Origin: a virus
Taxonomy: Duplodnaviria; Caudoviricetes
Strand: one strand, 5' to 3'
Virus record (IMG/VR): IMGVR_UViG_3300042731_008397
Span: 68,055-132,054 of that record
Length of the DNA: 64,000 nt
Shown: one piece after another, positions 39 through 64,000 of the stretch
Layout of the letters: every line of letters starts with the position of its first letter
How positions within the stretch are numbered: the stretch's first letter is position 1
Notes under the pieces: model-generated
The model's input: the letters and a program-made list of their open reading frames with translations, nothing else
Database searches by the model: none
What the model was told of the DNA's origin: nothing
Program-made: the position numbers and the translations under genes

Positions 39-1574
39 ATGAAACGACAATATTTTAGCACGTCAGGACTTGAAGAGGCCTTGAGATTCGGGTGGGGGGA
101 CTTTGACGAACAAGAAAACCACCCTACCCGGTTTGCTCGGTTTCGATTTTCTCACCCGGTTCCTAAAACTGAAAAGCGGGGAACACGGGCAGAAGATTGG
201 CCCGAAATAGCAGATATTTTTATGGAGAGTGAAGAAATTCCTTTCTGGATGAAGCCCAAGAAAGAAGGGAACTGGCGGGAAAATATCACTCAATTACCGA
301 TACGCTTGTCAAACCGAACTATGCCTGAAACGATTGTCACCTTTTGTGGTATCAATAAAGGCGGGAAATACGTCGGCGGTAACTGGCTTTGCCGGATGTA
401 TGTTGACCAGAACTTCTACCCGAAAGGCAAGCTGTTGACGGCTCTCTCAGAGATGCCAGAGAAAGAACGTGATAAAATTCTGGTACAGCATACGCCAATT
501 GATCCAGAAGGAGAAGGCCCGTTGACGGGCGATCCGATTATTCATACTGAGCCTTTTATTCATTGCGGGTATGTTGCCCTGAGAGTGGTCGGAAACAAAG
601 AGATTCTTGTCCCGTGTGATTGGGATACTTGCCCCTTTGCCTGGGAAGAGACAAAGAAATATGGGCTACAAAAAATCTGTAGCTGGAATGGAATCTTTAA
701 ATGCACCATGCCGTGGACAGGACTCGCAGGAGAAGCCGTTTTACGGACACGAAGCTATGTTTCCATTCACCGGATCAGAGGGGCTTTAACGATGCTTTAT
801 GAGGCATTAGATGAACGCTGGCGGCGATACCTGGCACTCCGTCAGGAGATGCAAGCCATCAAAGCACCTGAAGATCAAGAGCAGTTTCGTCAACAAAATT
901 ATCTGCTTATGTATCCGCCTAAACCCCCGTCACTCAAGAATATGTGGGCAATTATCTCTGTAAAAATGCGCCCGCAAGAATGGAAAGGCAGAATGGGGGA
1001 ACAGCCCGTTGCCAGTATAAGTTTCACTGGCTATGCGGAAAATGTGATGAAGGCGCTTAAAGATGCGGAACCCGAAAAACGGCAGTTAGCGGAATCCGTA
1101 GAGTCGGTTGAGGAGACATTGGCGAAAATAAAAACACAAAACGCCGCATTATGGGACAAATTGCAACCCACGTTTTTCCCGGAATCACCTGAAGATGCCA
1201 ACGCTGGAAAAGCGAAAAAGGTCTTTGGAGATTGGGTACTGGCAACTTATAGTAAGCCGTTAAATACCTTAGACGGGCAAAAGAAAGCGGCAAGTGTATT
1301 AGCCAAGCTTGTTACGTTCCATGAATATTACCTAAAACAGCAAAAACTTTATGACTTACCAGAGTCCCCCCTTGATTGGGCAGAACAACAGATTGGTTTA
1401 CCTGTGATTAACTGGTGGTTATTGACAGCGGAGCAACAAAATGACCTCAATGCCCGTTTAGGGCAGATTCGAGAGCCTGCTACTCCGCCACAGCAGCAAG
1501 AAACACCAGAAAAAGGCAAACCAGAGGAAAACCCTTCTCTGGTTAATAGTGCTCAACCCCCTAAGAACGGGTAA
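39..1574 (+). CDS. Phage Gp3-like (recombination directionality factor-like) protein
   Basis: 511 aa; AGGAG RBS; LPIRL...WLCR...CDWDTCPF...CSWNG...LRTRSYVSI pattern recalls the phage Gp3-like family (recognised from memory). Confidence 0.5.
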   Translation: MKRQYFSTSGLEEALRFGWGDFDEQENHPTRFARFRFSHPVPKTEKRGTRAEDWPEIADIFMESEEIPFWMKPKKEGNWRENITQLPIRLSNRTMPETIVTFCGINKGGKYVGGNWLCRMYVDQNFYPKGKLLTALSEMPEKERDKILVQHTPIDPEGEGPLTGDPIIHTEPFIHCGYVALRVVGNKEILVPCDWDTCPFAWEETKKYGLQKICSWNGIFKCTMPWTGLAGEAVLRTRSYVSIHRIRGALTMLYEALDERWRRYLALRQEMQAIKAPEDQEQFRQQNYLLMYPPKPPSLKNMWAIISVKMRPQEWKGRMGEQPVASISFTGYAENVMKALKDAEPEKRQLAESVESVEETLAKIKTQNAALWDKLQPTFFPESPEDANAGKAKKVFGDWVLATYSKPLNTLDGQKKAASVLAKLVTFHEYYLKQQKLYDLPESPLDWAEQQIGLPVINWWLLTAEQQNDLNARLGQIREPATPPQQQETPEKGKPEENPSLVNSAQPPKNG

Positions 1575-1578
1575 TATC

Positions 1579-1600
1579 GGGGGAGGCTTTGTCCTCCCCC
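1579..1600. terminator. GC hairpin after ORF 39..1574
   Basis: ggggagg-ctttgt-cctcccc directly after the stop; weak U-tract. Confidence 0.45.
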
Positions 1601-1647
1601 TCCAATCATTTTTAGAGAGACAACGGGAGTTTTTTGCTTAAAAATCT

Positions 1648-1830
1648 ATAGTTATCCAGCTACATTGTATGCCTAAGCACCCCGTATGCTTAGGCTGCCC
1701 TGGATAACTATTTTTGCCATGATAAGAGTGTGTGTTACTTAACGCTAAAACTATTAAGCTTCTTGGTTCAATGTTATTCTCAATAGAATGACTCCCCAAG
1801 CGTAAATTCGGGCTACACCAGTCCTACTAC
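1648..1830 (-). ncRNA. Stand-alone TnpB-type omegaRNA: scaffold ~1830-1730, ~18-nt guide 1729-1712, closing hairpin 1711-1648
   Basis: Minus strand GTAGGACTGGTGTAGCCCGAATTTACGCTTGGGGAG...GAACCAAGAAG-hairpin-TAACACAC aligns with the tnpB right end at 4624-4726, with a compensatory CTTGG/CCAAG vs CCTGG/CCAGG change; no tnpB attached. Confidence 0.7.
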
Positions 1831-1835
1831 GGTTT

Positions 1836-1864
1836 AGCGTATTATAGCTTTTTATAATTGTCAA
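1836..1864 (-). promoter_or_regulatory. Sigma70-like promoter for the orphan omegaRNA
   Basis: TTGACA-17 nt-TACGCT on the minus strand; predicted start ~1830 matches the scaffold start. Confidence 0.55.
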
Positions 1865-1886
1865 GCTTTTATAACTATTTTATGCC

Positions 1887-3359
1887 ATGAAAAAAAGACC
1901 GGAAGAGCCAAATGCCCATGATGCGGAACAAGAGGTTATCGGAGCTACCTTAGCGTTTCCAGACGTTATCAAAATTATATTATCTGAGAAATTAGAAAGC
2001 TTTCATTTTTATTTCCGGTCACACCGGATTATTTTCGATACTATTCTCCAAATTGTTTCCAACCGACAAGAGGTAGCCGCTGCAACCGTTATCCGAGAAC
2101 TGTATAAACAAGACAATATTGCAAAGATACACGGGGCAGGCCCTGGAAAAGCTGAATTAAAGGGCGAAGAATACGTCCAGTGGTTAGCCAACTCGACACC
2201 TTCCCATAGAACGGTCATCGGTTCTATTAAACTGATTAAATTTAAATTCCATCTCCGGATCTCCGCTGCCCAAGCTGAGGCGATCCAGGCTGCTTGTTAT
2301 CAAAAAGACGCCAACCCCGATCAAGTTCTTTCTCTTTTCTCATCGGCAATGATGGAAATCCAATCGAAAGTCGGTGATCGGCATAGCCTTTCTAAGGCTC
2401 CTCAAACGGCAGCGAAAACATTCCGTTATTTTCAAGAGTGCTTAAAAAACAAGAAAAGTATTATCGGTGTCCCGTCAGGCTCCCCGTTACTGGATTATTA
2501 CACAAAAGGTTTTCAGCCCAGGCGATTATATTTTTTCGGTGCCCGTCCGAAAGACGGGAAAACAAGCTACATGCTCCAAATGTTAACAAAACAGAGTATC
2601 CGAGGCATTGACGGGCGGAAGTATAACGCATACATAGCCAGCATGGAGACCCCTGAAGAAGAGTTAGGAATGGGGTTTCTCAGTAAATTATCAGGTATCC
2701 CGGAAGATTTGATTATAACCGGAGACATTAACCAAACCCAGTATGAGGCGATAGATAAAGCTAAGGCCTTAATGCAAGCCGGGACATTTTGGATTGATGA
2801 TAATTCCGAACAGACCATTTCCACATTACGGGCGAATTGCCAGATATTACAAGCCACAGAAGGACTTGACATCGTGTATGTGGATTTTATTCAGTACATG
2901 ACAGACCCGTCCCGACGATGGGAACGGCGTCAACTAGAAATTGCCTTTATAGCGAAAGGATTACAAACTCTTGCAAAAGACCTCGGCGTCCCCGTTATCG
3001 CTTTTGCCCAATTAGGTAGGCAGGTTGAAGAAAGAGGAAAGAAATCTGATCCGATTGCAACCGGATACCGTAGACCGTATATCGGGGATTACCGTGAAGC
3101 TGGTGACATAGAGCAAGCCGGGGATTTTCTTGGATTCTTATGGAGACCGTGCATAAAGCAACCTGGAATCATTGACCCGGTAACTGGGCATGAATTTGAA
3201 GAGTCATTTACCATCATAGAACGCCAGAGAAAGGGCAAGTCAAATATTGACATCCCGAATATGTTGGATAGAAGTATTATGTGGCTTTATCCGAAAGAAG
3301 GCGACGGGCAGCAACAAATTCCAGGAACTGCTCCGCCTGAAAATAAACCATTTGGATAG
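1887..3359 (+). CDS. dnaB: Replicative DNA helicase
   Basis: N-terminal AEQEVIG/FYFRSHRIIF domain, Walker A GARPKDGKTS, VYVDFIQ, AQLGR, REAGDIEQAGD. Confidence 0.93.
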   Translation: MKKRPEEPNAHDAEQEVIGATLAFPDVIKIILSEKLESFHFYFRSHRIIFDTILQIVSNRQEVAAATVIRELYKQDNIAKIHGAGPGKAELKGEEYVQWLANSTPSHRTVIGSIKLIKFKFHLRISAAQAEAIQAACYQKDANPDQVLSLFSSAMMEIQSKVGDRHSLSKAPQTAAKTFRYFQECLKNKKSIIGVPSGSPLLDYYTKGFQPRRLYFFGARPKDGKTSYMLQMLTKQSIRGIDGRKYNAYIASMETPEEELGMGFLSKLSGIPEDLIITGDINQTQYEAIDKAKALMQAGTFWIDDNSEQTISTLRANCQILQATEGLDIVYVDFIQYMTDPSRRWERRQLEIAFIAKGLQTLAKDLGVPVIAFAQLGRQVEERGKKSDPIATGYRRPYIGDYREAGDIEQAGDFLGFLWRPCIKQPGIIDPVTGHEFEESFTIIERQRKGKSNIDIPNMLDRSIMWLYPKEGDGQQQIPGTAPPENKPFG

Positions 3360-3365
3360 ACTTAT

Positions 3366-4726
3366 AGATAACGGTGCAAGAAAACCCATTCTATCCCTTT
3401 AGGGATGGGAGGAATTGCGCCACGGGCGAAAGCCCGTCAAAAAAAGTGTTCTTTGAGATAAAAAAACCTTGACAATAATAAAAAGCTTTGTTTTTCTAGT
3501 AGCCATGATTCACAAAGCGTTTAAATACCGACTTTCACCAACACAAGCGCAACAAGAGGTTATTGCCAGGACGTTTGGGTGTTGTCGCTATGTGTATAAT
3601 TGGGGTCTGTCTGAGAAAGTGAAGGCGTATGAGCAGGAGAAACAGACGCTTTCCTGTGTTGATCTCATTAAGCGCCTAACGACCTTAAAACAAGAACTCC
3701 CCTGGTTGAAAGAGGTGTACTCGCAAGCATTACAGATGTCCTTACGGAATCTTGACAATGCCTTTACCCGGTTTTTTAAGAAGTTAGGCGGGTTTCCGAA
3801 GTTCAAGTCACGGAAGAATCATCACCAATCCTGTCAATTTCCACAGGGCGTCAAAGTCGATTTTGAGAAGAAGACGGTCTATCTGCCAAAAATAGGAGAT
3901 GTTCATCTAAAGATGCGAAAAAAAACGCATATCTTTGACGGAAAGATTAAAACTGTCACGTTACGGCAGACCCCCTCTGGGAAATATTTTGTCAGTCTCT
4001 TGGTGGAACTTGACCAGGAACTTCCGAAAAAACCACCAATTGAACTAAAGACAACCGTAGGCGTGGATATGGGAATTAAGACCTTTGTCACGTTGTCAAC
4101 GGGGGAAGAGATTGAGCATCCAAAGACCCTGAAGAAGTCATTAAAGACGTTAAAACGCTTACAGCGTCAACTCTCTCGAAAGCAGAAAGGCAGTCGCAAC
4201 CGGGACAAAGCCAGGAAACGATTGGCAAAATTACATGAACATGTCAGTAATCAGCGTGAAGATTTTTTGCATCAAGTCTCTCATCGGTTAACGAGTGAGA
4301 ACCAAGCTACAACGATAGCGATGGAAGACTTGCATATTGCTGGCATGGTGAAAAATCACAAACTGGCTCAGGCCATCATAGATAGCGCCTGGGGGATGTT
4401 TGACAACTTCGTGGCGTATAAATGTGACTGGCGTGGCAAGAACCATCTGCATATCCATCGGTTTGCCGCGAGCAGCCGGATTTGTTCGTTGTGTGGGTGG
4501 TATAATACTGAATTAACCCTAAAAGACCGTGTATGGACATGTGGCGGGTGCGGCGCAAAACGCCCCCGCGATCTCAATGCTGCGAAGAATATTCGCAAAT
4601 GGAGCGTCCATCCACAAAATATGGTAGGTCTGACATAACCGATGTTAAGCCTGGGGAGTGTTGCCGGTAGGTGACACGACGAACCAGGAAGGAATCCCAG
4701 GTGCTTCAGCCCTGGGAGGATGTCAA
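3366..4726 (+). mobile_element. IS200/IS605-family tnpB-only (IS1341-like) element 1
   Basis: TTAT at 3362-3365, left-end hairpin ~3385-3410, tnpB, right end GAAT-hairpin-GTCAA ending at 4726. Confidence 0.8.
3505..4638 (+). CDS. tnpB: RNA-guided endonuclease TnpB
   Basis: KAFKYRL HTH start; RuvC D (GVDMG), E (MEDL), D (RDLNAAKNI); CxxC..CxxC zinc finger; ATG at 3505 preferred. Confidence 0.95.
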   Translation: MIHKAFKYRLSPTQAQQEVIARTFGCCRYVYNWGLSEKVKAYEQEKQTLSCVDLIKRLTTLKQELPWLKEVYSQALQMSLRNLDNAFTRFFKKLGGFPKFKSRKNHHQSCQFPQGVKVDFEKKTVYLPKIGDVHLKMRKKTHIFDGKIKTVTLRQTPSGKYFVSLLVELDQELPKKPPIELKTTVGVDMGIKTFVTLSTGEEIEHPKTLKKSLKTLKRLQRQLSRKQKGSRNRDKARKRLAKLHEHVSNQREDFLHQVSHRLTSENQATTIAMEDLHIAGMVKNHKLAQAIIDSAWGMFDNFVAYKCDWRGKNHLHIHRFAASSRICSLCGWYNTELTLKDRVWTCGGCGAKRPRDLNAAKNIRKWSVHPQNMVGLT

Positions 4727-4745
4727 TAAAGGAGATTGCTTATGC
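4624..4745 (+). ncRNA. omegaRNA (reRNA) of element 1 plus flanking guide
   Basis: Overlaps tnpB 3' end; CCTGG/CCAGG stem, terminal hairpin, TCAA end. Confidence 0.7.
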
Positions 4746-11501: not shown

Positions 11502-13163
11502 ATGAAAAAGTTCATATCACTTTTATGTATTATTGTAATTATTTTTGGCTTGAGTACGTTGTCATTTGGGGCTAAGTATACACGACATAATGCGGTGTAT
11601 GGAAAAAGTGGTGGTCTAAGTTATGATGCTGTATATGAGGCATTACAAGGGTACCAATTCCCTTTATCTATACCATTGCTGCAAACCCCTGAATTTGGTG
11701 GAACGACAAAAGCATTTGAGATCAATCGTTATATAGCGACAGCGGAAGCTGATGGTGCAGGGGGATTCACAATTGATAGTAATTTGCCTGCGCTTAGCTA
11801 TGTTCTTTATGTCCAAAGTCGTGTAGATGTGGCATTAACCGGGACTGCTACTAATTGGGATCTTACAGTAGGTTCTGGCGGACAAGAAGTCTGTTCTAAC
11901 CAGGCATTTACTCAAAATACCAAGTGCTCTGCATTTTATGACCCTAATGCAAACTCACCAGTATTATCTGCTGAAACAGATTTGTATATTGTTCCTGATT
12001 CTGGGAATATCACTGAAGGATTTATTACCGCAGTTGTGTATGTGCTAGAGGCGACCGATCTTGCGGACACTGTAGCGATGTCATTCTCAGGAGAGACTTT
12101 CAGTGAGGATGCTGCGAATGACGGGACAATCGATAACACAACTCCTGTTACGATTACCCTTACGGGGGAAACCTTTACTGGTAATGCTTCAGACGATTTT
12201 GTAGACGATGGTAAAGTTGTTGTGACAAATCTCCCTGAAGGGCTAACTGTTGTTGCCACTAGGACATCTGAAACTGTTTTAACACTTACAATTACCGGAA
12301 CTGCAACCGATCATAACAATGCTGACGATGTTACTACTCTGACCCTTACATTTCAAGATTCCGCTTTTGGGGCGACCGCATCAGAGATCATCAATTATGC
12401 GAAGGCAGACCTGACAGTTGACTTTAGTGCTCCTGTCCTAGCCTATAGTGGAGGTACTTTTGGTGAAGCAATTGAAAACGATGGATCAATTGATAATTCT
12501 ACACCAATTACAATCACATTAGCCGGAGACGTACTCACAGGAGAGAATTCTGATGATTTTGTGGACGAAGGAAAAATCGTTGTTTCTAACTTATCAACAG
12601 GATTGACAGCAGTAGCTACTAGAACATCATCCACAATTCTCTCGGTAACTTTGACTGGAAATGCCTCTGCTCATGCCGACGCTAACGATGTTGCCGATTT
12701 GACATTTACCTTCCAAAATACAGCTTTTACGAATTCAGATGCCAGTGAAGTAACAAATTATGCAAAAGCGGATTTAGCCATTGATTATGATGATCCTCCT
12801 GAACTGGCCTATAGTGCTAGTACGTTTACAGAACATGGCAATAATGATGGAACTATCGACAATAGCACACCGGTTGTGATTACGTTGACTGGAGAGACAT
12901 TTACTGGGTCGGATACAGATGATTTTGTTGACGGTGGTAAAATTGTTGTTACAAATCTTCCGGCGAATTTAGTAGCTGTCGCAACCAGGACAAGTAGTAC
13001 GACATTAAGTGTTACATTGACGGGAGCGGCAACAAGTCATGCAAATGCCGATGATGTGTCAGATTTGACCTTTACATTTCAAGACTCGGCATTTACGAAT
13101 GTTGCGGCGTCTGATATTACCAATTACGCCAAGAGTGATTTAGCCATTGATTTCTCTGATTAG
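11502..13163 (+). CDS. Signal-peptide protein with three ~121-aa beta-rich repeats
   Basis: MKKFISLLCIIVIIFGLSTLSFG; three repeats of F.E...NDG.IDN.TP..ITL.G...YAK.DL..D. Confidence 0.75.
   Translation: MKKFISLLCIIVIIFGLSTLSFGAKYTRHNAVYGKSGGLSYDAVYEALQGYQFPLSIPLLQTPEFGGTTKAFEINRYIATAEADGAGGFTIDSNLPALSYVLYVQSRVDVALTGTATNWDLTVGSGGQEVCSNQAFTQNTKCSAFYDPNANSPVLSAETDLYIVPDSGNITEGFITAVVYVLEATDLADTVAMSFSGETFSEDAANDGTIDNTTPVTITLTGETFTGNASDDFVDDGKVVVTNLPEGLTVVATRTSETVLTLTITGTATDHNNADDVTTLTLTFQDSAFGATASEIINYAKADLTVDFSAPVLAYSGGTFGEAIENDGSIDNSTPITITLAGDVLTGENSDDFVDEGKIVVSNLSTGLTAVATRTSSTILSVTLTGNASAHADANDVADLTFTFQNTAFTNSDASEVTNYAKADLAIDYDDPPELAYSASTFTEHGNNDGTIDNSTPVVITLTGETFTGSDTDDFVDGGKIVVTNLPANLVAVATRTSSTTLSVTLTGAATSHANADDVSDLTFTFQDSAFTNVAASDITNYAKSDLAIDFSD
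12078..13160 (+). repeat. Three tandem ~363-bp intragenic repeats
   Basis: Repeat units start near 12078, 12438 and 12804. Confidence 0.85.
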
Positions 13164-13927: not shown

Positions 13928-14030
13928 ACTCTTTGGCGAACGTATGGATTAGCCAGAACGTGATAAGTTTTATTCCGAGTAGTTTCATAGGGGTATGACC
14001 TTCCAAGTCCTTAGAAACGAAATTCGACAA
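13928..14030 (+). repeat. Dispersed ~100-bp element A, copy 1
   Basis: ctctttggcgaacgtatgg...ttcataggggtatgaccttccaagtccttagaaacgaaattcgaca. Confidence 0.75.
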
Positions 14031-14053
14031 CATTTAGCAAGTGAGGTAATTGT

Positions 14054-24630: not shown

Positions 24631-24768
24631 TTTGGCGTCTTACCGAACCTGTCGAAAGAAGGCCTCTTCTATGGCTTCAGCCAGAGGATGAATTTCGACA
24701 AAAATTTCTGAATTTTTTATAAAATAGTTCTTGACACTATGTAGTTAATTTCATAATATGACTACATA

Positions 24769-24939
24769 ATGAAACAAGAAGATAAATATACAACGCTCCG
24801 AATTTGGACATCAAGTGTCCAAAAGCTTCGTCTCATCTATGCGTTGACAGGTGAAACGATGGTGAAAATTTTAGACCGATTGTTAACGGATGAATTGAAA
24901 CGAATACAAGCATCTCATGATCATCACGAAAAACTATAA
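24769..24939 (+). CDS. 56-aa ribbon-helix-helix-like protein (absent from the ORF track)
   Basis: MKQEDKYTTLRIWTSSVQKLRLIYALTGETMVKILDRLLTDELKRIQ; follows a TTGACA promoter overlapped by an ATGTAGT/ACTACAT inverted repeat. Confidence 0.65.
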   Translation: MKQEDKYTTLRIWTSSVQKLRLIYALTGETMVKILDRLLTDELKRIQASHDHHEKL

Positions 24940-26065
24940 ATACAAGCTGTACCGGAATAAGAAAAACAAGCACTTACATCAACAGATTAACATTGCAGGG
25001 ATTATCTATAACCATTGTATCGCCCTGCATAAAAGGTACTACCGGATTTATGGGAAACATCTGAACTGCTATCACATCCAAAAGCATATCACAAAACTTA
25101 AGAAACATCCGCGTTATGCATTCTGGAACCTTGTCGGTTCACAAGTCATTCAGAATATTTGTCAACGCATCGACAAAGCGTATAAACTCTTTTTCCGTAA
25201 CTTGAAACACAGCATCAAGACGGCTCCGCCAGGCTTCAAGAAGGTCAAAAAATATAAATCGTTCACCCTCAAACAAGCCGGGTGGAAACTGCTTGACGGC
25301 AATAAAATTCAACTCAATTCCCATGTTTATAAATACGCAAAAAGCCGTGACATCGAAGGAACTATCAAAACCGTTACCGTTAAGCGAGACACCTTAAATA
25401 ATCTGTACTTGTGTTTTTCGGTCAAACAAGAAATCGAAATACCAGACACCAGGGATAACAGCCGGGTCTGTGGATTTGATTTTGGACTAAAAACCTTTCT
25501 CGTTTTGTCTAATGGCAGTGACATCAAGAATCCTCTCTTCTTTAAACAATCTCAAAAGGACATCAAACACGCTAATCGTGATCTATCCCGAAAACAAAAA
25601 GGTTCCAATCACTACAAACACGCCAAACGGACGCTTGCTAAAGTCCATGAAACGGTCAAAAACCGTCGCAGGGACTATCAGTTCAAACTGGCACATCAAT
25701 TGATCGATGACTACGATGTCCTGATATTTGAAACCCTCAATATCAAAGGAATGCAACGGCTGTGGGGGAAGAAAGTCAACGACTTAGGATTTGCCTCGTT
25801 TCTGCTAATTTTGAAACATGTGGCAGTTCCGAAAGGCAAGATTGTCTTCTTTCTTGACCAGTGGCAACCGACGACGAAACCCTGTTCCGCGTGTGGGTAT
25901 CTGAATTACGGCTTAACACTGAACGACCGGTATTGGACATGTCCGCAATGCAGTACATTCCATAATCGAGATAAAAACGCTTCGATAAATATTGAGCGAC
26001 AGGGCGTTGTCGCTCTTGGGTTAGGCGGTGTAAGACCTCCATTAGGTGAGGCAACCGCTGTCTGA
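24917..26065 (+). CDS. tnpB: RNA-guided endonuclease TnpB
   Basis: RuvC GFDFG, FETL, RDKNASINI; zinc finger. Confidence 0.95.
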   Translation: MIITKNYKYKLYRNKKNKHLHQQINIAGIIYNHCIALHKRYYRIYGKHLNCYHIQKHITKLKKHPRYAFWNLVGSQVIQNICQRIDKAYKLFFRNLKHSIKTAPPGFKKVKKYKSFTLKQAGWKLLDGNKIQLNSHVYKYAKSRDIEGTIKTVTVKRDTLNNLYLCFSVKQEIEIPDTRDNSRVCGFDFGLKTFLVLSNGSDIKNPLFFKQSQKDIKHANRDLSRKQKGSNHYKHAKRTLAKVHETVKNRRRDYQFKLAHQLIDDYDVLIFETLNIKGMQRLWGKKVNDLGFASFLLILKHVAVPKGKIVFFLDQWQPTTKPCSACGYLNYGLTLNDRYWTCPQCSTFHNRDKNASINIERQGVVALGLGGVRPPLGEATAV

Positions 26066-26101
26066 CCCCAGAATCCCAGGTGCTTCATCCCTGGGAGTAC
26101 G

Positions 26102-26305
26102 TCAAATATCCTGTTTTATCGTTGCCGTATTGCGGAGAATTCGATCCATCACTTTGGGTGTGTCAACAGACTGTTTTTGAAGGAAACATCCGGTACATCC
26201 TTGGGCAATATACGGGCAAGTAGAGTTCAAAAGTTCAGTTTCACAGTGAGGAGTTATCCCCTTTATACGGGATACGGTCATTAATTCTTTAGATTTCATA
26301 GACAT
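26102..26305 (-). CDS. Small Cys-containing hypothetical protein
   Basis: Stop lies at the IS right-end junction. Confidence 0.35.
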   Translation of the reverse strand: MSMKSKELMTVSRIKGITPHCETELLNSTCPYIAQGCTGCFLQKQSVDTPKVMDRILRNTATIKQDI

Positions 26306-26397
26306 TCCAGTTAGAGTAAAACTGTAACAACAGAACTCTTCAAAACTTAGATGTTTATTCTAGGAAGTTTACGATCTTCTGGAAGTTTCTAAGCTGT

Positions 26398-26913
26398 TTA
26401 CGTTATCCCCCGATATAATTCTTTTAACAGAGACGGCATAAGGGATCTATGTAGACCTAAAATGTATTCTCTGAGTTGGCTTATATAGTTTCTTGGGCGG
26501 ATCCCGCTCACCCATCGTAAAAAGAATTCCTGCCCTGCCCATTGTTTGCGTCCGTAAAAGTGCATATATTGAGCCGTAACCGGGCCGTGAGCGGCTGTAC
26601 CTTCATCAAGGAAATGAATAATATGATTGACGGTAATGTTAGTATCGGGGTTTACAATGCCTGTGCCCATCGTATGAAACCATTTAATATAACCGTTTCC
26701 GATTTCATACGTCCAACCTGCTCCTAATAATGGGGAGTCAACGTCATCTCTAATGATTTTTTCAATCCGAATAACCCCTTGTTTCCCCAGTGTATGGAGA
26801 TGAGAGAGAAAGAGCGCCGGTGCTCTTCCTTGAGCTATTTTGAATTGAACCTCCAAACGGGAAATACGGTATAACAAATCATTAATTGACGAATTTCCTT
26901 TGAATCCGATCAT
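26398..26913 (-). CDS. HK97 gp10-like neck/tail completion protein
   Basis: FLDEGT..HGP....MHF...VSGIRPRNY. Confidence 0.6.
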   Translation of the reverse strand: MIGFKGNSSINDLLYRISRLEVQFKIAQGRAPALFLSHLHTLGKQGVIRIEKIIRDDVDSPLLGAGWTYEIGNGYIKWFHTMGTGIVNPDTNITVNHIIHFLDEGTAAHGPVTAQYMHFYGRKQWAGQEFFLRWVSGIRPRNYISQLREYILGLHRSLMPSLLKELYRGIT

Positions 26914-28346
26914 AAATCTGCCAAATGCACCGTATGATGGGCAACGGTTTTATATAGTCTCGGGTTAGAATCTGGATTTTGATAATGATTAAAGCTAAAA
27001 ACCCCGCAATATAAGTTTTCACAGTGTTTAGCATGAACTCCGTAATAATTTCGGGCTAAAATGTCCTGGACATGGATCGGAAATGTTCTTGCTTCTTCTT
27101 CTTCTCCATATCCCATGTGTTGAAGGGCTTTTTGCGGGTCATACATAAGCTTTTCTACCAGCTTGACGTAATAGTCGGCCTCTGTATTCTTTTTCTTCCA
27201 GAATCGTTCCGAATCTTGGGAAAAAGAGAGTTGGACATCATAGATTTTCCGCCCTTTTAAGAGCAAATGGAGCAAAATGCCTATTTCTAGCATAGCGGCA
27301 ACCAGCCCCTGGGTATGTTGGAGTTTGGCAAGCATTTTTTCATAGACTACAGAAATCCATGAAGAGGCGCGGGCGGTATCTTCTGTCATCCATTCCCCCA
27401 GTGACTTGACAAGGCGGTTTTGCAAAAGTTTCATGAAACCGAGAGAATTATTGATTTCACCGGCGAAATTCAATATTTTCGGGCTTTCGATACTTTCATA
27501 ATGAGTAACGATGCCTTCTTGGAAGCCCTTTCGTAGGGTCTCATGAACGATTGCCAGATAATTTTCAAGTCGGGTCTGGTATGCCAATTCAGACTCAAAA
27601 AACATCTTGACGGGCTTTTTTACCTGTAGTGCTAAAAGCCCTAATAATCCTAGTTTCTTTATCGCCCGATCTATACTTGCTAAAGCATTATTCAACCGCC
27701 CCATTTCTTCCAATGCACTTAGAAACGGGGGGATAGGATAGGGCTCTTGTGACAATGCCCGCATTGCTAGAAGTTGGTATTTAGGGTATTTTAGAGGCGT
27801 TAGTTTCCCCGTATTTGTTTGCTGGTACGGGGCATAACCATGTTCTTTTTGATTATATTGTAATACCAACATAGGCACGTCAACCCGATGGATGGCGACA
27901 ACCTGGCCTCTCCGTTTCCTGGAATCATCATACGCTATTTCCCATTCCTGGGAGATTGCCCCGGACGTGATTAACTGCATAAAAAGATCATTAATTAGCC
28001 CCGGTAGCCCGCCCAGTTCTTTCCTGATCTTTCGGGCAAAGGCATTGAGGTCTAACTGTGCAAGTTTTATGTCCCGTTCATTCGGGCTTAACAAGGTGAC
28101 TTTATGTCCCGTCCCGGCAAGCTGTTCAATATCGCTCGTTACACGGGCAAAATCACCCTGCCATGCTACCAAAAACTCAATTTGCGGGATAGCCTCTTTT
28201 ATAGAGTCCCACGTTAACATGTGGGGTCTCGGATAATGTTCCTTGAGAGATTGCCTTCCCGCTCGAATCGGGGGAATAGACGATACTTGAGTAGGAACAG
28301 GAGGTTGTAGCATCTCAAATTCTGGCAAAAACTGCAATTTATACAT
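26910..28346 (-). CDS. Probable portal protein
   Basis: 478 aa; LITSGAISQEW and PYPIPPFLSALEE patterns; coupled to the neck gene. Confidence 0.55.
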   Translation of the reverse strand: MYKLQFLPEFEMLQPPVPTQVSSIPPIRAGRQSLKEHYPRPHMLTWDSIKEAIPQIEFLVAWQGDFARVTSDIEQLAGTGHKVTLLSPNERDIKLAQLDLNAFARKIRKELGGLPGLINDLFMQLITSGAISQEWEIAYDDSRKRRGQVVAIHRVDVPMLVLQYNQKEHGYAPYQQTNTGKLTPLKYPKYQLLAMRALSQEPYPIPPFLSALEEMGRLNNALASIDRAIKKLGLLGLLALQVKKPVKMFFESELAYQTRLENYLAIVHETLRKGFQEGIVTHYESIESPKILNFAGEINNSLGFMKLLQNRLVKSLGEWMTEDTARASSWISVVYEKMLAKLQHTQGLVAAMLEIGILLHLLLKGRKIYDVQLSFSQDSERFWKKKNTEADYYVKLVEKLMYDPQKALQHMGYGEEEEARTFPIHVQDILARNYYGVHAKHCENLYCGVFSFNHYQNPDSNPRLYKTVAHHTVHLADL

Positions 28347-38354: not shown

Positions 38355-38454
38355 ACTCTCTGGCACTCTGAGAGACGCCGTATGGCTCTTTCTCTCATAA
38401 TCCCCTATGAGTATAGGGATTGACATTCCGACTGCTTACAATCGAAATTTGGCA
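38355..38454 (+). repeat. Dispersed element A, copy 4
   Basis: ctctctggcactctgagagacgcc...cccctatgagtatagggattgacattccgactgcttacaatcgaaatttggca. Confidence 0.85.
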
Positions 38455-38456
38455 CG

Positions 38457-39164
38457 TTATGAGACGTTTTCGGTTTTATGTAGCTTAACCAGCACAGGCC
38501 CCATAAGGCTAATAACGTCATCGGATTTCCATTCAGAAAGTTCCCATTCTCTTGTTAAGTCTTGCCGGGTTTCTTGATCACCTCCTGAAGCCCGTAACAA
38601 GAGTTGTTGCAATAATGATGGCTGATCTGGATGTTCGCTAAACCACTGTATAGCGGGCGTCAACTCGTTTCTTCTCCATTCTTTCCAATCAAATTGAGGA
38701 GATGTTTGTACCGGAGCCCCAGTATGCGGTAAAGGAATAACCGGAGTAGTAGAGGATGTTGGACGTAATTTGATTTCTTGTATGATTGCGGTTTCTTCTT
38801 TTTGGCATATAAGGGCGGTCAGCGGCAGAAGATTAACCCGAAAATGCCGCCGTGTGGCGAATTGACGTTTTAATGCTCGAACCTCTCTGAAAAGTACCGT
38901 CTCCGGGATCTTTTCCAACGTTTTTTGTTGCTGGTAATATGAGAGAAGAGTGTCCTTCTCCATTTGTGGAACGGTTTTCCAAAATGTTCCGTCAGGCTGA
39001 AGTTGACCAGCTAAAATAAAGTAAATCTGTTGACTTGTTAAATAGAGCATAATCCGGTCTGCCGGTGTCCCCCAAACTGCCGTAAGACGGTAAAGGACAA
39101 TCCAAGTATCTCTCGGAATAATATCGAAAAACATTGGAGCTATTAAAGAATTGACATCTTCCAT
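38457..39164 (-). CDS. Putative replication initiator (N-terminal winged HTH)
   Basis: FWKTVPQMEKDTLLSYYQQQKTL...RRHFRVN resembles phage initiator wHTH domains; iterons nearby. Confidence 0.55.
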   Translation of the reverse strand: MEDVNSLIAPMFFDIIPRDTWIVLYRLTAVWGTPADRIMLYLTSQQIYFILAGQLQPDGTFWKTVPQMEKDTLLSYYQQQKTLEKIPETVLFREVRALKRQFATRRHFRVNLLPLTALICQKEETAIIQEIKLRPTSSTTPVIPLPHTGAPVQTSPQFDWKEWRRNELTPAIQWFSEHPDQPSLLQQLLLRASGGDQETRQDLTREWELSEWKSDDVISLMGPVLVKLHKTENVS

Positions 39165-43231: not shown

Positions 43232-44248
43232 TCAAGAAGTGGTGATCTGGAACATAAAAGGGATTACCAACAAAAGATATTTGATATTCCCATAACCAAC
43301 AAGGATCCCTGCCAATATAAAATACGCATAAGGGTGCCATGAAATACACCATAACGGGAAAAGATAGAACGGAATTGCCTTTAAAGAGGCGCATGATAAA
43401 TGTACCCATCTCCATTTCAATGAATGGAAGAGCTTTAGCATGAGTTTTTTGAGCACATTTTTTCTTGGGAGTGTATTGCTTGGTCGTCGGTACATCGAAT
43501 AAAGCCCACCTGAAAATTGATGTAGCAGAAAGCGGGCGTGAAGATGGCCCCAGTACCATTTTGACGCCCACCATCCATAGATCCCTCCACCTATAATCGG
43601 TAGCGTGATTGAAAAAGAAGGCCACAGCATCGGAATTAAGAATGGCACTACAATAATCGTTGAATATTTCAGGAAACACGCCAAAAGTATTGTGACTCCT
43701 GCAAACCATCTATGATGCATTTGGATAAAACGTAGTGCAATAAGTACCAGACCAAACGCATACAAGTCATTCATTGGCTGTAATGACATTATTTGCATAA
43801 GTGGGGTGGCTGCGATTAACAACATTTGTGTACGCCCATATAACACGATACATAATTTTAAACATACGCCGGTCCAAAAAAGGGCATAAATTTGCTGTAA
43901 GAAATAAGAAGGAGTTTGCGCAACCAGCCACGTAAATAGCGGCGGTTGCAGCTTAACGTAGTTGCAAAATGGAAGTGTCTCAAGAAATTGATGAACGGAT
44001 AATCCGTGGAGAAGATAAAGTTGATTCCAGGTTATTCGCACATCAATGCAGAGCATAGAGCCTTTGAACCCCACAAGAAGATTTAATAAATAACACAAAA
44101 GAATTCGTTCTGATGTCCAAGTATACTCAATAGCCAAAAAACAGATAAGCATATTTACACATATAATTATCCACTGTAGACAAGACAATGATAAACTATC
44201 TTTAAACACCAACCCAACCACTAATAGCCTCCGGGCACTTCGATCCAA
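43232..44248 (-). CDS. Polytopic membrane protein, GT-C glycosyltransferase-like
   Basis: Many TM helices; LQPPLF, QPMND and LKY motifs. Confidence 0.55.
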   Translation of the reverse strand: MDRSARRLLVVGLVFKDSLSLSCLQWIIICVNMLICFLAIEYTWTSERILLCYLLNLLVGFKGSMLCIDVRITWNQLYLLHGLSVHQFLETLPFCNYVKLQPPLFTWLVAQTPSYFLQQIYALFWTGVCLKLCIVLYGRTQMLLIAATPLMQIMSLQPMNDLYAFGLVLIALRFIQMHHRWFAGVTILLACFLKYSTIIVVPFLIPMLWPSFSITLPIIGGGIYGWWASKWYWGHLHARFLLHQFSGGLYSMYRRPSNTLPRKNVLKKLMLKLFHSLKWRWVHLSCASLKAIPFYLFPLWCISWHPYAYFILAGILVGYGNIKYLLLVIPFMFQITTS

Positions 44249-45267
44249 TCACCAGCATCACACGTCAAATCAATACTCCCACAAACATCTCCAAGTGCCG
44301 TCCCTTCACCTTCATCAAAATTCCACTGTGCAGCACAGTGGGGATATGACCCTTCTTTTGTAATCCCTTTCCACGAGCTAGCCGGGAAGACATCATTGTC
44401 TCCAAATGCCATAAACATGATCCGTCCGTCTACGGAACTGCCCAAATTAACCGTGTCTGTTGTGCCGACCCCTGTATAATTATCGAAATCCGTTACAGCG
44501 GCAACTACGGCACCACAAGTGCCATTAACACAAAAAGTTACCTCATCATTCGTTCCATCATAGGAAACATCAATTTGGATCGGGACGCCGGTTTCTTGTG
44601 CCCCTAGCGATTGAGATGTATAGGTGTAGGTCGTAGTCGCAGGTGTTCCCCCTAAATCTGTTCCGACCGTGACATACAGTTGATTTGAGGCATCAATCCC
44701 AACACGGAGACGTACCGCAGAATATTCGGAATTAATAAAATCCCATAGTGTACAAGTTTGGAGCGTATCAATCACCATCGCTGCGGACCAATGCCAATTC
44801 GTCTTAAAAAAAACTGGTTTTAACGTTGATGCGGAAATGGTAGTTGTCGCCATTGTGCCTGTCCCGTTATCATCAAGCCCATACTCAAGACTCCCTCCAC
44901 TGCCTGACCCAACCTCAGCCCAGTCTTCTCCGTAATTTTGATACATTAATATCCCACTAGTGTTTTTAAACCGGACAGGAAGAGATGTCATAGAGTTGTA
45001 AAGAAATAGCACTTCTTCATCCAAAATTGATGGCGTAATGGTCATGACCCCATTACTGGATGTTGCGTTTTGCTCCGTAATCTCTGTTAACGGTTCTCCT
45101 CCTGGAGCAATAATCACTGTCCGCCGTGGAGTCCCCGAATCTTGAATAACTTGCGAGAGCGCCTGCTGTTTCCGGGCAAGTAATTCTTGTTGAGCGTGAA
45201 TAAACAAAATTCCAACCCCTAAACCACATAAAAAAAGTAGGCTATATACAAACTGTTTTCGTGTCAT
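44221..45267 (-). CDS. Signal-peptide protein with a LamG/ConA-like C-terminal domain
   Basis: N-terminal signal ending IHA; VSYDG...FCVNG; AQWNFDEGEGT. Confidence 0.6.
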   Translation of the reverse strand: MTRKQFVYSLLFLCGLGVGILFIHAQQELLARKQQALSQVIQDSGTPRRTVIIAPGGEPLTEITEQNATSSNGVMTITPSILDEEVLFLYNSMTSLPVRFKNTSGILMYQNYGEDWAEVGSGSGGSLEYGLDDNGTGTMATTTISASTLKPVFFKTNWHWSAAMVIDTLQTCTLWDFINSEYSAVRLRVGIDASNQLYVTVGTDLGGTPATTTYTYTSQSLGAQETGVPIQIDVSYDGTNDEVTFCVNGTCGAVVAAVTDFDNYTGVGTTDTVNLGSSVDGRIMFMAFGDNDVFPASSWKGITKEGSYPHCAAQWNFDEGEGTALGDVCGSIDLTCDAGDWIEVPGGY

Positions 45268-45281
45268 AATCTTTCATCTCC

Positions 45282-46205
45282 TTACCAATACTCCTCATGG
45301 AGGAGTCGGATTGATTCATTTAAGATGAGACGAATCCGAACATACCCGCTAGGACTATAAGATCCGCTGTACCAATCCCCGTCATTACGATACTCGAATT
45401 CTCCTGGAAATTCCAGCCAATCTTCTGAAGTTTCAATAGGGCACCATCCCCATGCTCCTGTTGCAACATGACCGGTGACTTCTCCGCTTCCCCCGATTAG
45501 ACTGACATCAAATTCATATCGAAACATTTCGTATTCAGTTGTATCACTCGTACATAAAAAACTGACAATAAGGGTATTCCCAGAAAAAGAGACAATGACA
45601 GATAACATGGATAGATAGCCAACATAACTAATATGTTGACCGACCCATCCTGTCCACCATAGCATAAGATCATAGGTTGTAATTCCTGGCGCAGGATCTG
45701 ATGTCTGACCGGGATGGCGAACAATATACCCTAAATGAGATGTCCAAGCGTTCTCACCATCTGGATTCTGTGAAAAATCAGAATACACCATAGGATTGTG
45801 AACGACAATATCTTTTGTCTCAAGAATCCCAATTTGTGACACTAACCGAGACCATTGTGTATTACACCACTCAGTTCCTGTACATTTATATCCAAATCCA
45901 GCAAAAGCTGTTGAGTTAAAATACGGGTAGCCTAGTTTGGGCCCCCATTCATAACGATAGTCAAGAGGAATAACATATACATGAATTTTTTGTTCGGTTA
46001 AGAGTCCACGATCCACAGGTTGATGTTTAGGGAAAATCGGATGGAAAAGAGCGGGCGGTTTCGGAGCAATGGCTTGTTGCCCTTTCGGGTCTACCATAAC
46101 AAACCAGTCTCTGTATTTGACATTTGTTAAGACGTTCCCATCCTCGGTAATACCGATGCCTCCCCCGATAAATTTGATAATTTGATCAACTTTGGATTTA
46201 CTCAT
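45282..46205 (-). CDS. Hypothetical tail-associated protein
   Basis: Aromatic, beta-rich; context. Confidence 0.45.
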   Translation of the reverse strand: MSKSKVDQIIKFIGGGIGITEDGNVLTNVKYRDWFVMVDPKGQQAIAPKPPALFHPIFPKHQPVDRGLLTEQKIHVYVIPLDYRYEWGPKLGYPYFNSTAFAGFGYKCTGTEWCNTQWSRLVSQIGILETKDIVVHNPMVYSDFSQNPDGENAWTSHLGYIVRHPGQTSDPAPGITTYDLMLWWTGWVGQHISYVGYLSMLSVIVSFSGNTLIVSFLCTSDTTEYEMFRYEFDVSLIGGSGEVTGHVATGAWGWCPIETSEDWLEFPGEFEYRNDGDWYSGSYSPSGYVRIRLILNESIRLLHEEYW

Positions 46206-53976: not shown

Positions 53977-54076
53977 ACTCTCTGGCGAACGTATGGGTAG
54001 CCAGAAGACACCAAAAATTGATCCGAGTACCTTCATAGGGGTTGACGTTTCGACTGCTTAGAATTAAAATCTGGCA
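53977..54076 (+). repeat. Dispersed element A, copy 7
   Basis: Left arm shared with copy 1; ttcataggggttgacgtttcgactgcttagaattaaaatctggca. Confidence 0.85.
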
Positions 54077-54112
54077 GCATTTTTTATCTAAGGAAATTAA
54101 CAACCCCGTTCC

Positions 54113-60320: not shown

Positions 60321-60393
60321 ACGCTATTTTATAGACATGTCTCCTATGTTCATAGGGGTTGACTCTCCGAGTCCGTAGAAACAAAATTTGGCA
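60295..60393 (+). repeat. Dispersed element A, copy 8
   Basis: ctctggcgttctcagagacgcc...cctatgttcataggggttgactctccgagtccgtagaaacaaaatttggca. Confidence 0.85.
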
Positions 60394-60400
60394 TCTATTT

Positions 60401-61075
60401 TTAGATCATTCCGTCTTCCCGCCTGAAATCGGGGAGCGGGCGATGTTCCTGTGGAGTATAGAGAAACAACGAATACGTCACGCCTTCTTCCGCATCAGGC
60501 GGGAAAACTTGGTAAGCAACATGTTCTTTTCCGACAAATGCCCGTTTGACTTGAGTTAAATCCGCATGTTTCGGGTATTTATCGTTTCTTCCTACTAAAA
60601 TAATTCTCCAAGAAACTCTTTTGAATTCTTTTGTAGTGACGGCGATTCTCAGCCTTTTCTTTTTCCAAAAAGAGCGTATTTGCTGGTCAAATTCTTTGCA
60701 AGAATCCCCGGATTGACTACGCCATTCAATCGGTAAAGAGTCTGTTAATTTCCCGTCAAGCGGAGAAAATAAATGTAGACAATACGGATGCACATTTACC
60801 TTTTCCTTGTCTGGCGGGAAAACATGAACCGCCGCGTTATTATGCCCTGCAAAAATACGTCTGACCTGTTGTAATTCGGGATAAATCGGGCACCGGCTTC
60901 GATAAGATACGGAAAAATGTCTCCATCGTTTCCCGTTATGCAGTTCTATTCCTACCATAATGTGCATATTCCGAACGGTGGCGAAACAACGGGTATATGG
61001 TGAAATAGGCGGCGTCTCTTGCCAGTTTGCGGGCAGGATATACGTTTCAAAATTTGCTTGTGTCGTGTATTCCAT
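60401..61075 (-). CDS. Phage protein with a tandemly duplicated domain
   Basis: WRHFSVS..CP.YPELQQVRRIF...HVFPP repeated as WRIILVG..YPKHADLTQVKRAF...QVFPP. Confidence 0.7.
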   Translation of the reverse strand: MEYTTQANFETYILPANWQETPPISPYTRCFATVRNMHIMVGIELHNGKRWRHFSVSYRSRCPIYPELQQVRRIFAGHNNAAVHVFPPDKEKVNVHPYCLHLFSPLDGKLTDSLPIEWRSQSGDSCKEFDQQIRSFWKKKRLRIAVTTKEFKRVSWRIILVGRNDKYPKHADLTQVKRAFVGKEHVAYQVFPPDAEEGVTYSLFLYTPQEHRPLPDFRREDGMI

Positions 61076-63864: not shown

Positions 63865-63932
63865 CCGAAGGCATTAAAACTTGATCAATCGGGAGTACCT
63901 GGGCACTTTCCGTATTATATCCGAAAGAGATA

Positions 63933-64000
63933 TTGACATCCTCCCAGGGCTGAAGCACCTGGGATTCCTTCCTGGTTCGTCGTGTCACCTACCGGCAACA
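63933..64000 (-). mobile_element. Right end/omegaRNA of a second copy of element 1 (continues beyond the window)
   Basis: 68 nt identical by eye to the reverse complement of 4659-4726. Confidence 0.88.

Follow-up and report, generated by a model that had tools for sequence, protein, structure and literature searches.

PATE-like elements, which contain no protein genes, often encode omegaRNAs (TnpB-type guide RNAs) that are acted on in trans, according to passages of a preprint (Meers et al., PMC10055086). In TldR systems, guides located beside nuclease-dead TnpBs match host promoters, and some of them reside in prophages (parts of PMC10705468 and PMC13622181). The 5′ end of a canonical omegaRNA arises by processing of the tnpB mRNA (a section of PMC10278001), and homing into co-infecting phages is listed as a possible mode in Table 1 and accompanying text of PMC13565253. 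Promoter-fused, tnpB-less omegaRNA genes in phages were not described in the search hits and passages covered. Here we analysed a tnpB-less omegaRNA module, hereafter S1, on the minus strand of a tailed-phage contig (Caudoviricetes; IMG/VR record IMGVR_UViG_3300042731_008397). The window, meaning the whole 64,000-nt stretch analysed, comprises positions 68055–132054 of a single 132,054-bp virus contig with a CheckV completeness of 95%; coordinates are those of the window unless assigned to the contig. The window encodes phage capsid and tail proteins, DnaB, primase, an SbcC-like protein and an SNF2 helicase, and the sequencing run that covers it best is labelled as a wetland metagenome. S1 lies inside a 312-nt gap between a 511-aa open reading frame (ORF; 39–1574, plus strand) and its divergent neighbour, the gene for a DnaB-type replicative helicase (dnaB; 1887–3359, plus strand; Pfam DnaB_C 2.3e-47, DnaB 6.2e-13). 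IS200/IS605 derivatives without tnpB are a known class, of which S1 is a variant, and the evidence tips modestly toward a tnpB element of the IS200/IS605 family that deletion left stranded and that possibly still makes an orphan omegaRNA; the element would belong to the same ISDra2-like clade as two TnpBs encoded in this contig (T1 and T4).

Like the PATEs treated in the relevant parts of that preprint (PMC10055086), S1 lacks tnpB and keeps a right-end omegaRNA, its activity would need a TnpB made elsewhere, and several modules of its kind stand beside full elements in one genome. Unlike PATEs, which have sub-terminal hairpins at both ends and recur as a unit at different sites, S1 retains only the inner ~25 nt of the left end (LE), has neither the LE hairpins nor the canonical right-end motif, occurs once in the contig, carries a candidate promoter fused to its scaffold, and is located in a phage and not in a bacterial chromosome; two sibling modules, S2 and S3, do form a repeated unit. 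With canonical ISDra2-type TnpB omegaRNAs, S1 shares the core in sequence and secondary structure, including the fold family, the single-stranded motifs and a guide position 3′ of the right end. However, it neither overlaps nor follows a tnpB ORF, its neighbours being the 511-aa ORF and dnaB; its tail reads CACAC, not TTCAC; and its 5′ end would come from transcription initiation instead of tnpB mRNA processing. As in TldR–guide RNA systems, an immobilised TnpB-type guide RNA occurs in a phage context and could serve its carrier. Unlike in those systems, no gene for a TnpB with degraded RuvC adjoins S1, the nearest TnpB (T1) reads as intact and is encoded on the opposite strand at a distance of 1.7 kb, and no promoter or target with a target-adjacent motif (TAM) was found to match the guide in the contig, in the collection viral_contigs or, beyond chance, in genome_contigs. 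CRISPR arrays and the stand-alone guide genes of type V systems resemble S1 in that guide and nuclease are encoded apart and several guides share a genome, but the S1 locus contains no repeats or spacers, and a complete scaffold accompanies each guide; the contig does contain a true CRISPR array at another place, with a different repeat.

To identify the scaffold, we used a covariance model, R1. Loci encoding T1 relatives (42–55% identity) were gathered from IMG/VR and one-genome-per-species contigs, and the stretches at the gene 3′ ends were aligned for 49 of 54 candidates; L010, L016, L119, L125 and L126 were dropped owing to long insertions. R1 comprises 97 positions and 24 pairs and includes no sequence from this phage. 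S1 was the top R1 match in the 64-kb window when both strands were searched with filters off (41.5 bits, E 7.8e-8), and the match extended over the full model (positions 1–97 of 97). The runner-up was the omegaRNA of T1 itself, at 20 bits (E 0.0076). Supporting the validity of the model, R1 gave 67 matches on 80 independent metagenome loci, 63 of them at the 3′ end of a tnpB match with 30–101 bits, a range that contains the score of S1; the other four lay upstream of a tnpB. In a specificity control of five other viral records (1.4 Mb), all five matches adjoined a tnpB. An Rfam search returned no family match in the entire window. An earlier note, made from the letters of this DNA without database searches, had proposed that ~100 nt here align with the T1 omegaRNA, including a compensatory stem change, and had named a covariance-model search as a check; the model from other genomes bears out the proposal, and the stems pair through two-sided changes.

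Consistently, in an alignment of S1, T1 and the three sibling modules S2–S4, 91.7% of cells pair and 13 of the 24 pairs change on both sides. None of 500 shuffles reached the observed level, and slid controls paired in 23–43% of cells; the alignment was fitted to the model and therefore leans toward structure. All four helices of S1 are intact. By inspection, S1 keeps 17 of the 21 invariant columns of the 49-sequence alignment, having lost two bases in the loop of hairpin 1 together with the TT that opens the terminal TTCAC. We conclude that S1 is a real, well-preserved orphan omegaRNA module. Because R1 also matched upstream of tnpB in other metagenome contigs (L398, 1372–1462; L355, 1093–1184; L376, 306–397; L411, 889–976), orphan or tandem scaffolds occur elsewhere too. 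Three of these four matches are mutually conserved inside the left-end region, and that of L411 is a solo copy with a canonical TTCAC end.

The scaffold core (1730–1829, minus strand) consists of three hairpins and an enclosing helix and ends in GTAACACAC. Ahead of it, direct reading of the minus strand gives a −35 hexamer TTGACA (1864–1859, 6/6), a 17-nt spacer and a candidate −10 TACGCT (1841–1836, 3/6), as the earlier note had reported. A promoter-like site with a perfect −35 is present, and S1 may be promoter-driven as described there; the −10 matches at only three positions, and a consensus promoter scan (4/6 required) did not list the site. A perfect TATAAT is present, but only 12 nt past the −35. 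The CTTGACAA motif found at the −35 of S1 also precedes T1, T3, T4 and the tnpB of L341, a metagenome locus that encodes a TnpB with 73% identity to T1. On the other side, because the R1 match places the scaffold end at 1730, the putative guide position starts at 1729, where it had been proposed to start. These 18 nt, ACTCTTATCATGGCAAAA (1712–1729, minus strand), separate the scaffold from a long hairpin (1648–1711) with a 12-bp outer stem (1711–1700 with 1659–1648) and a 9-bp inner stem (1695–1687 with 1679–1671), an arrangement already noticed from the letters. T runs lie on both sides of the hairpin (TTTTT at 1644–1640 on the minus strand; 1712–1716 on the plus strand), and it is likely a two-way terminator of the phage backbone. 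The predicted fold of 1832–1640 has −59.7 kcal/mol (z = −4.3), a stability reached by none of 200 shuffled sequences. In the minimum-energy fold, 1832–1822 pairs with 1727–1717 (~10 of 11 pairs, including G-U); this predicted pairing of the transcript start with the guide region could occlude the guide, or it may reflect chance. An RNA run (X4, 59 million letters) gave no contig over 1003–4509, and such contigs cannot show the start, end or level of an RNA.

We found no tnpB coding remnant within 1400–2200 (best relaxed tblastn match, E 0.22), in agreement with the earlier note. Its further statement that no left end is adjacent is contradicted by the segment AAAAGCTTGACAATTATAAAAAGCT (1846–1870, minus strand), which is homologous to the LE upstream of the tnpB genes of T1, T4 and L341 (blastn and alignment). 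Against the entire contig, blastn with 1870–1846 gave a single match, in the T1 upstream region (25 nt, 92%, E 2e-4), and the segment also aligns with the corresponding region of T3 and T4. By this homology, the promoter segment of S1 is the inner LE of T1/T4-type elements, and a left-end remnant is present. The LE of T1 and L341 extends ~85 nt farther out and has two hairpins; at S1, this space is occupied by dnaB coding sequence, with a direct-repeat copy in between. At the right end, the scaffold of S1 closes with CACAC, whereas 49 of 49 family copies end in TTCAC, as do S2–S4, so the deviation first read as ACAC in place of TCAC holds against the whole family. No match to the Y1 transposase TnpA (PF01797) was found in the contig; a copy in the host could still supply it. 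Because the outer LE hairpins are gone, the end reads CACAC and the locus is shared with ~94%-identical phages, S1 looks immobilised to judge from its sequence, as had been suggested.

The insert is flanked by a 19/20-nt direct repeat. Copy 1 (1704–1722) contains the hairpin tail, the T run and, on the plus strand, an ATG with a 7-codon dead-end frame. Copy 2 (1871–1890) agrees at 19 of 20 positions with one extra base, shares an 8-mer and an 11-mer with copy 1, and contains the dnaB start codon (ATG at 1887). Eight nucleotides, ACTCTTAT, separate copy 1 from the scaffold end, and copy 2 abuts the left-end remnant. In the simplest reading, the unit together with 8 nt of foreign flank would have landed in the first dnaB codons, and the copy of the leader and ATG would have restored translation. 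The first 8 nt of the 18-nt guide lie outside the direct repeat and the last 10 within it; the flank is a chimera, beginning with 8 nt of other origin and continuing as the dnaB-leader repeat. Flanking direct repeats were rejected as a family trait: at the 53 of 54 family loci that could be tested, the longest matches between left and right flanks do not exceed the control, and only L341 (12 nt) and S1 stand out. The flanks of L341 (1369–1392 and 2728–2745) hold a 12-nt direct repeat with the start codon of the downstream gene, and TTTAT precedes the left copy. Like S1, L341 is an insertion at a gene start with a repeat that restores the start codon.

When R1 was also run on the other half of the contig, three more modules were detected: S2 (contig 62727–62844, plus strand, 45.6 bits), S3 (contig 8827–8710, minus strand, 40.3 bits) and S4 (contig 11712–11834, plus strand, 26–37 bits). 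All three are full length, and none adjoins a tnpB. With S1, the contig has four modules without a tnpB, and the term stand-alone in the earlier note describes the position of S1 but not its number. S2 and S3 have exactly 135 nt in common, 134 of them identical, with sharp borders and unrelated flanks. The shared unit begins TAACATGTTG, whose ATG and TTG may derive from the start of a former tnpB, and neither copy has a promoter comparable to that of S1. Since S1 is one of four such modules, decay or the spread of mini-elements fits better than a purpose-made guide, and the four could have been left by repeated invasion of the phage by such elements and their decay. S3 is antisense, 13 nt past an ATGA start/stop overlap, and S4 ends 1 nt ahead of the ATG of a gene for a ParB-HTH protein. 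A weak remnant of a T2-like TnpB C-terminus (contig ~63320–63417, minus strand; two pieces, E 0.021) lies ~480 nt from S2 and is further evidence of decayed elements.

The contig contains seven TnpB-superfamily ORFs: T1–T4, the TnpB of an IS607-type pair, a truncated 302-aa ORF and a 611-aa TnpB/Cas12-like ORF. T1 (3505–4638, plus strand; Pfam OrfB_IS605, HTH_OrfB_IS605 and Cas12f1-like_TNB) is the nearest candidate partner in trans. It matches ISDra2 TnpB structures with E 1.8e-64, and residue alignment to TnpB structures shows that GVDMG, AMEDL, RDLNAA and both CxxC pairs are retained. These include the catalytic residues of ISDra2 TnpB, and the RuvC and zinc-finger motifs of T1 read as intact. 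The omegaRNA core of T1 (4636–4727, plus strand) differs from S1 in its terminal hairpin and tail (…GGATGTCAA). At its 3′ end (63931–64000, minus strand), the omegaRNA of T4 is 100% identical to that of T1, as seen by inverted repeat and tblastn. The T4 gene is cut by the contig ends, and its catalytic motifs are not readable. T1 and T4 share 72% identity in their first 256 residues, and in the likely source run a 561-nt contig on 4168–4728 has about double depth. The break of the contig falls within T4; about 0.4 kb is therefore probably lacking, and the genome likely closes into a circle at this point. The terminal hairpins of T1/T4 and T2 (4692–4726 and 26071–26105) are 91% identical, whereas the proteins are only 27–29% identical, which suggests an exchange of right ends or a shared transposase. 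A contig of the RNA run X4 begins at 4635, crosses the T1/T4 omegaRNA and runs into the flank of T4.

Contigs of related phages were available from two other runs, both marsh metagenomes (X2 and X3). Contig 17 of X3 spans 1266–3301 and, over 2034 nt, differs at 125 letters and has 4 gaps (~6% diverged); it has no indel within 1648–1864 and three in the adjoining non-coding stretch 1575–1647. Contig 10 of X2 covers 1671–1855 with 6 other letters. Divergence of X2 is 6/185 nt (3.2%) in S1 versus 122/2599 nt (4.7%) over the eight X2 contigs listed, and S1 is thus not clearly more conserved than its surroundings. Because X2 and X3 carry S1 at the same place, S1 is older than the split of these phages, and it is fixed, with no clear extra constraint on it. 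No S1-less allele was seen in the X2 and X3 relatives. Among the variants listed, those common to X2 and X3 in the feature are at 1711, 1735, 1813 and 1822, of which 1711 is the first base past the 18-nt flank. Neither run covers 3508–4509, a gap that we do not take as proof that T1 is absent there. Their contigs exit the window sequence at 3365, directly after CTTAT, and re-enter near 4690 at the T1 terminal hairpin (4690–4726), with 20 extra nt ahead of the right flank of T1 and no contig joining across; the T1 site in these relatives seems to be occupied by a different element.

We then searched for targets of the putative guide. The 16-nt flank of S1 has no second site with up to 3 mismatches in the 132-kb contig, and the 18-mer has no match in viral_contigs. 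In genome_contigs, the 18-mer gave 25 matches over unrelated phyla, compared with an estimated chance expectation of ~17, and none of the 25 has TTAT or TTTAT directly 5′. The earlier note's suggestion of a guide aimed at a host or competitor therefore found no support in these collections, which comprise one genome per species and IMG/VR; the host and the co-occurring wetland phages are not among them. The so-called guide of S1 is local DNA adjoining the right end, the default for any IS200/IS605 element. In archaeal relatives, the conserved LE block starts with TTTAT at 11 of 12 resolvable junctions (17 aligned copies, by inspection), and TTAT adjoins the truncated left end of S1. However, this TTAT is probably not the original TAM, because the outer LE is gone, and its candidacy as such is doubtful.

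Taken together, we suggest the following course for S1. The ancestral element would have lost its outer left end with the hairpins, the whole tnpB gene and the canonical right-end cleavage motif, and would have kept the inner ~25–40 nt of the LE, with the element's own sigma-70-like −35, and the complete ~100-nt omegaRNA core. Transcription would start near 1830–1828, at the first scaffold base, and would be stopped by the two-way terminator hairpin of the phage. The product would be an omegaRNA whose guide is a fixed 16–18 nt of local flank, and a TnpB of the same clade (T1 or T4) may load it in trans. Since no TAM-flanked match to the flank was found, the S1 RNA is most likely an orphan, a neutral or at most selfish by-product, and not a guide aimed at a host or competitor. 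The S1 RNA is possibly usable in trans. Several observations weigh against this account. A true target may have been missed, given the collections searched. The intact structure, the retention of 17 of 21 invariant positions and the tidy layout of promoter, scaffold and terminator also fit a maintained function. The T1 omegaRNA reaches only 20 bits on R1 and differs in its terminal hairpin and tail, which are shared with T2, and the cognate TnpB of the S modules may be a deleted one that is no longer present. In the relatives, the substitution at 1735 (GTAA to GTAG) restores the family-consensus base. In hairpin 1, the variant at 1822 mends a mismatch and that at 1813 breaks a neighbouring pair, leaving the pair count unchanged. 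Finally, none of the listed variants shared by X2 and X3 falls in the 18 guide bases, where only ~0.5–1 would be expected.

The same conservation data bear on a silent fossil, that is, a decaying insertion sequence (IS) fragment with little transcription and no ribonucleoprotein, which would owe its tidy look to landing beside a backbone terminator. The 3/6 −10 at a site not called by the consensus scan, the four lost family-invariant bases in loop and tail, and an X2 divergence in S1 not clearly below that of its surroundings are all consistent with such a fragment. The hairpin, moreover, pre-dates the insertion, because its right arm runs into repeat copy 1 and T runs lie on both strands. 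We nevertheless regard this reading as unlikely: the perfect −35 stands in the same LE context as in intact T1, T3, T4 and L341, all four helices are preserved, and X3 shows no indel in the module against three in the adjoining 1575–1647.

A domesticated guide kept by the phage, as read in the earlier note, is distinctly less probable. Here, S1 and perhaps S2–S4 would re-aim an intact TnpB at host or competitor DNA. The intact scaffold with its own promoter, the terminator bounding the 3′ extension, the loss of mobility features and the retention of the locus in two related phage populations could all be expected of such a guide. The phage also encodes at least two TnpBs of matching clade, with the T1 motifs read as intact, and shows other investment in RNA-guided nucleases (the seven TnpB-superfamily ORFs and the CRISPR array). 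On the other hand, the searches of the contig, viral_contigs and genome_contigs yielded no target, and the guide is simply the local flank. S2 and S3, as copies of one unit without a comparable promoter, look like spread and not design, and the omegaRNA of T1 itself has a different terminal hairpin and tail. In a broader and very unlikely version, S1–S4 would be dispersed extra guides loaded in trans by a T1/T4-type TnpB, a natural multi-guide OMEGA system with guides encoded apart from the nuclease and intermediate between single-guide TnpB and CRISPR-Cas12. S1 would then be the most refined member, with its own promoter, a guide-trimming terminator and lost mobility, and the guides would cut competitor phages or host DNA absent from the collections searched.

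Selfish homing, in which the S1 RNA and a TnpB supplied in trans would cut the S1-less alleles that co-infecting relatives carry, with S1 and the adjoining dnaB region then being copied in, is highly improbable. There is precedent in 'non-restorative homing' into co-infecting phages, as named in part of the review PMC13565253, and in the passages on sister chromosomes in PMC10055086; the left flank of S1 also ends in TTAT, resembling the TTTAT of the archaeal LE junctions. But the missing outer LE makes that TTAT a poor candidate for the original TAM, the two relatives yielded no S1-less allele, and a reconstructed S1-less site with a single repeat copy directly ahead of dnaB would agree with no more than the final 10 of the 18 guide bases, leaving the 8 next to the TAM unmatched. 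Regulation of dnaB, by a transcript antisense to its leader and start codon or by promoter or terminator activity of the insert, can be all but dismissed, and antisense control was rejected as the principal explanation: RNA positions 8–26 past the scaffold could pair, leaving one bulge, with the duplicated leader and ATG of dnaB, and the insert lies 20 nt from the dnaB start, but the repeat copies drift apart in X2 and X3 (1711, 1885 and 1890), adding mismatches, and the promoter scan gave no plus-strand call in the insert.

If S1 is nothing more than a stranded remnant, as in our preferred reading, it is an ordinary product of IS decay, though still a clean and dated example at a locus shared by phages ~6% apart. 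If its RNA is made and loaded, S1 would be a natural case of an omegaRNA that has its own promoter, is expressed separately from its nuclease gene and serves in trans. The passage from TnpB to CRISPR-Cas12 requires such an uncoupling of guide and nuclease. The phage is suited to a test of this: it encodes two or more TnpBs of the matching clade, its four orphan scaffolds differ in their flanks, and a compact Cas12-like CRISPR locus is present separately.

That locus (contig 24640–27454) consists of the 611-aa TnpB/Cas12-like ORF (OrfB_IS605 and TNB) followed by the CRISPR array, which has 9 repeats of 37 nt and spacers of 35–39 nt. The first 30 nt of the nine spacers tested (the last taken as the 36 nt following the final repeat) had no match in their own contig with up to 5 mismatches. 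The 611-aa ORF and the array look like a compact phage-borne type V system. The IS607-type pair (contig 43613–46196) comprises a 206-aa serine recombinase and a 349-aa TnpB-like protein, and the truncated 302-aa TnpB-like ORF, which lacks the zinc-finger domain, is convergent to it.

Searches for relatives of the locus returned little. The window DnaB had no match in viral_contigs and, in a set of 5.8 billion clusters, matched only itself at E 1e-40 or better. Phage GenBank records yielded an 81-nt tnpB match only, and a 32-nt stretch of S1 had no exact match in viral_contigs. T1 as a single query had no match in genome_contigs, and blastn of S1 and T1 against the first 126 collected loci gave none at E 0.01. 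The motif TGGGGAG-N18-32-GAACCARGAAG was found at 53 viral and at least 121 genome loci, estimated to be about the number expected by chance. Apart from S1, the window contains a 55-nt intergenic motif in four copies (13985–14039, 38410–38464, 54032–54086 and 60349–60403). Each is laid out as TTGAC, 11–12 nt, a TAGAAT-like hexamer and then AAAT..TGGCA, and the motif may act as a promoter or operator specific to the phage, one whose spacing is unusually short.

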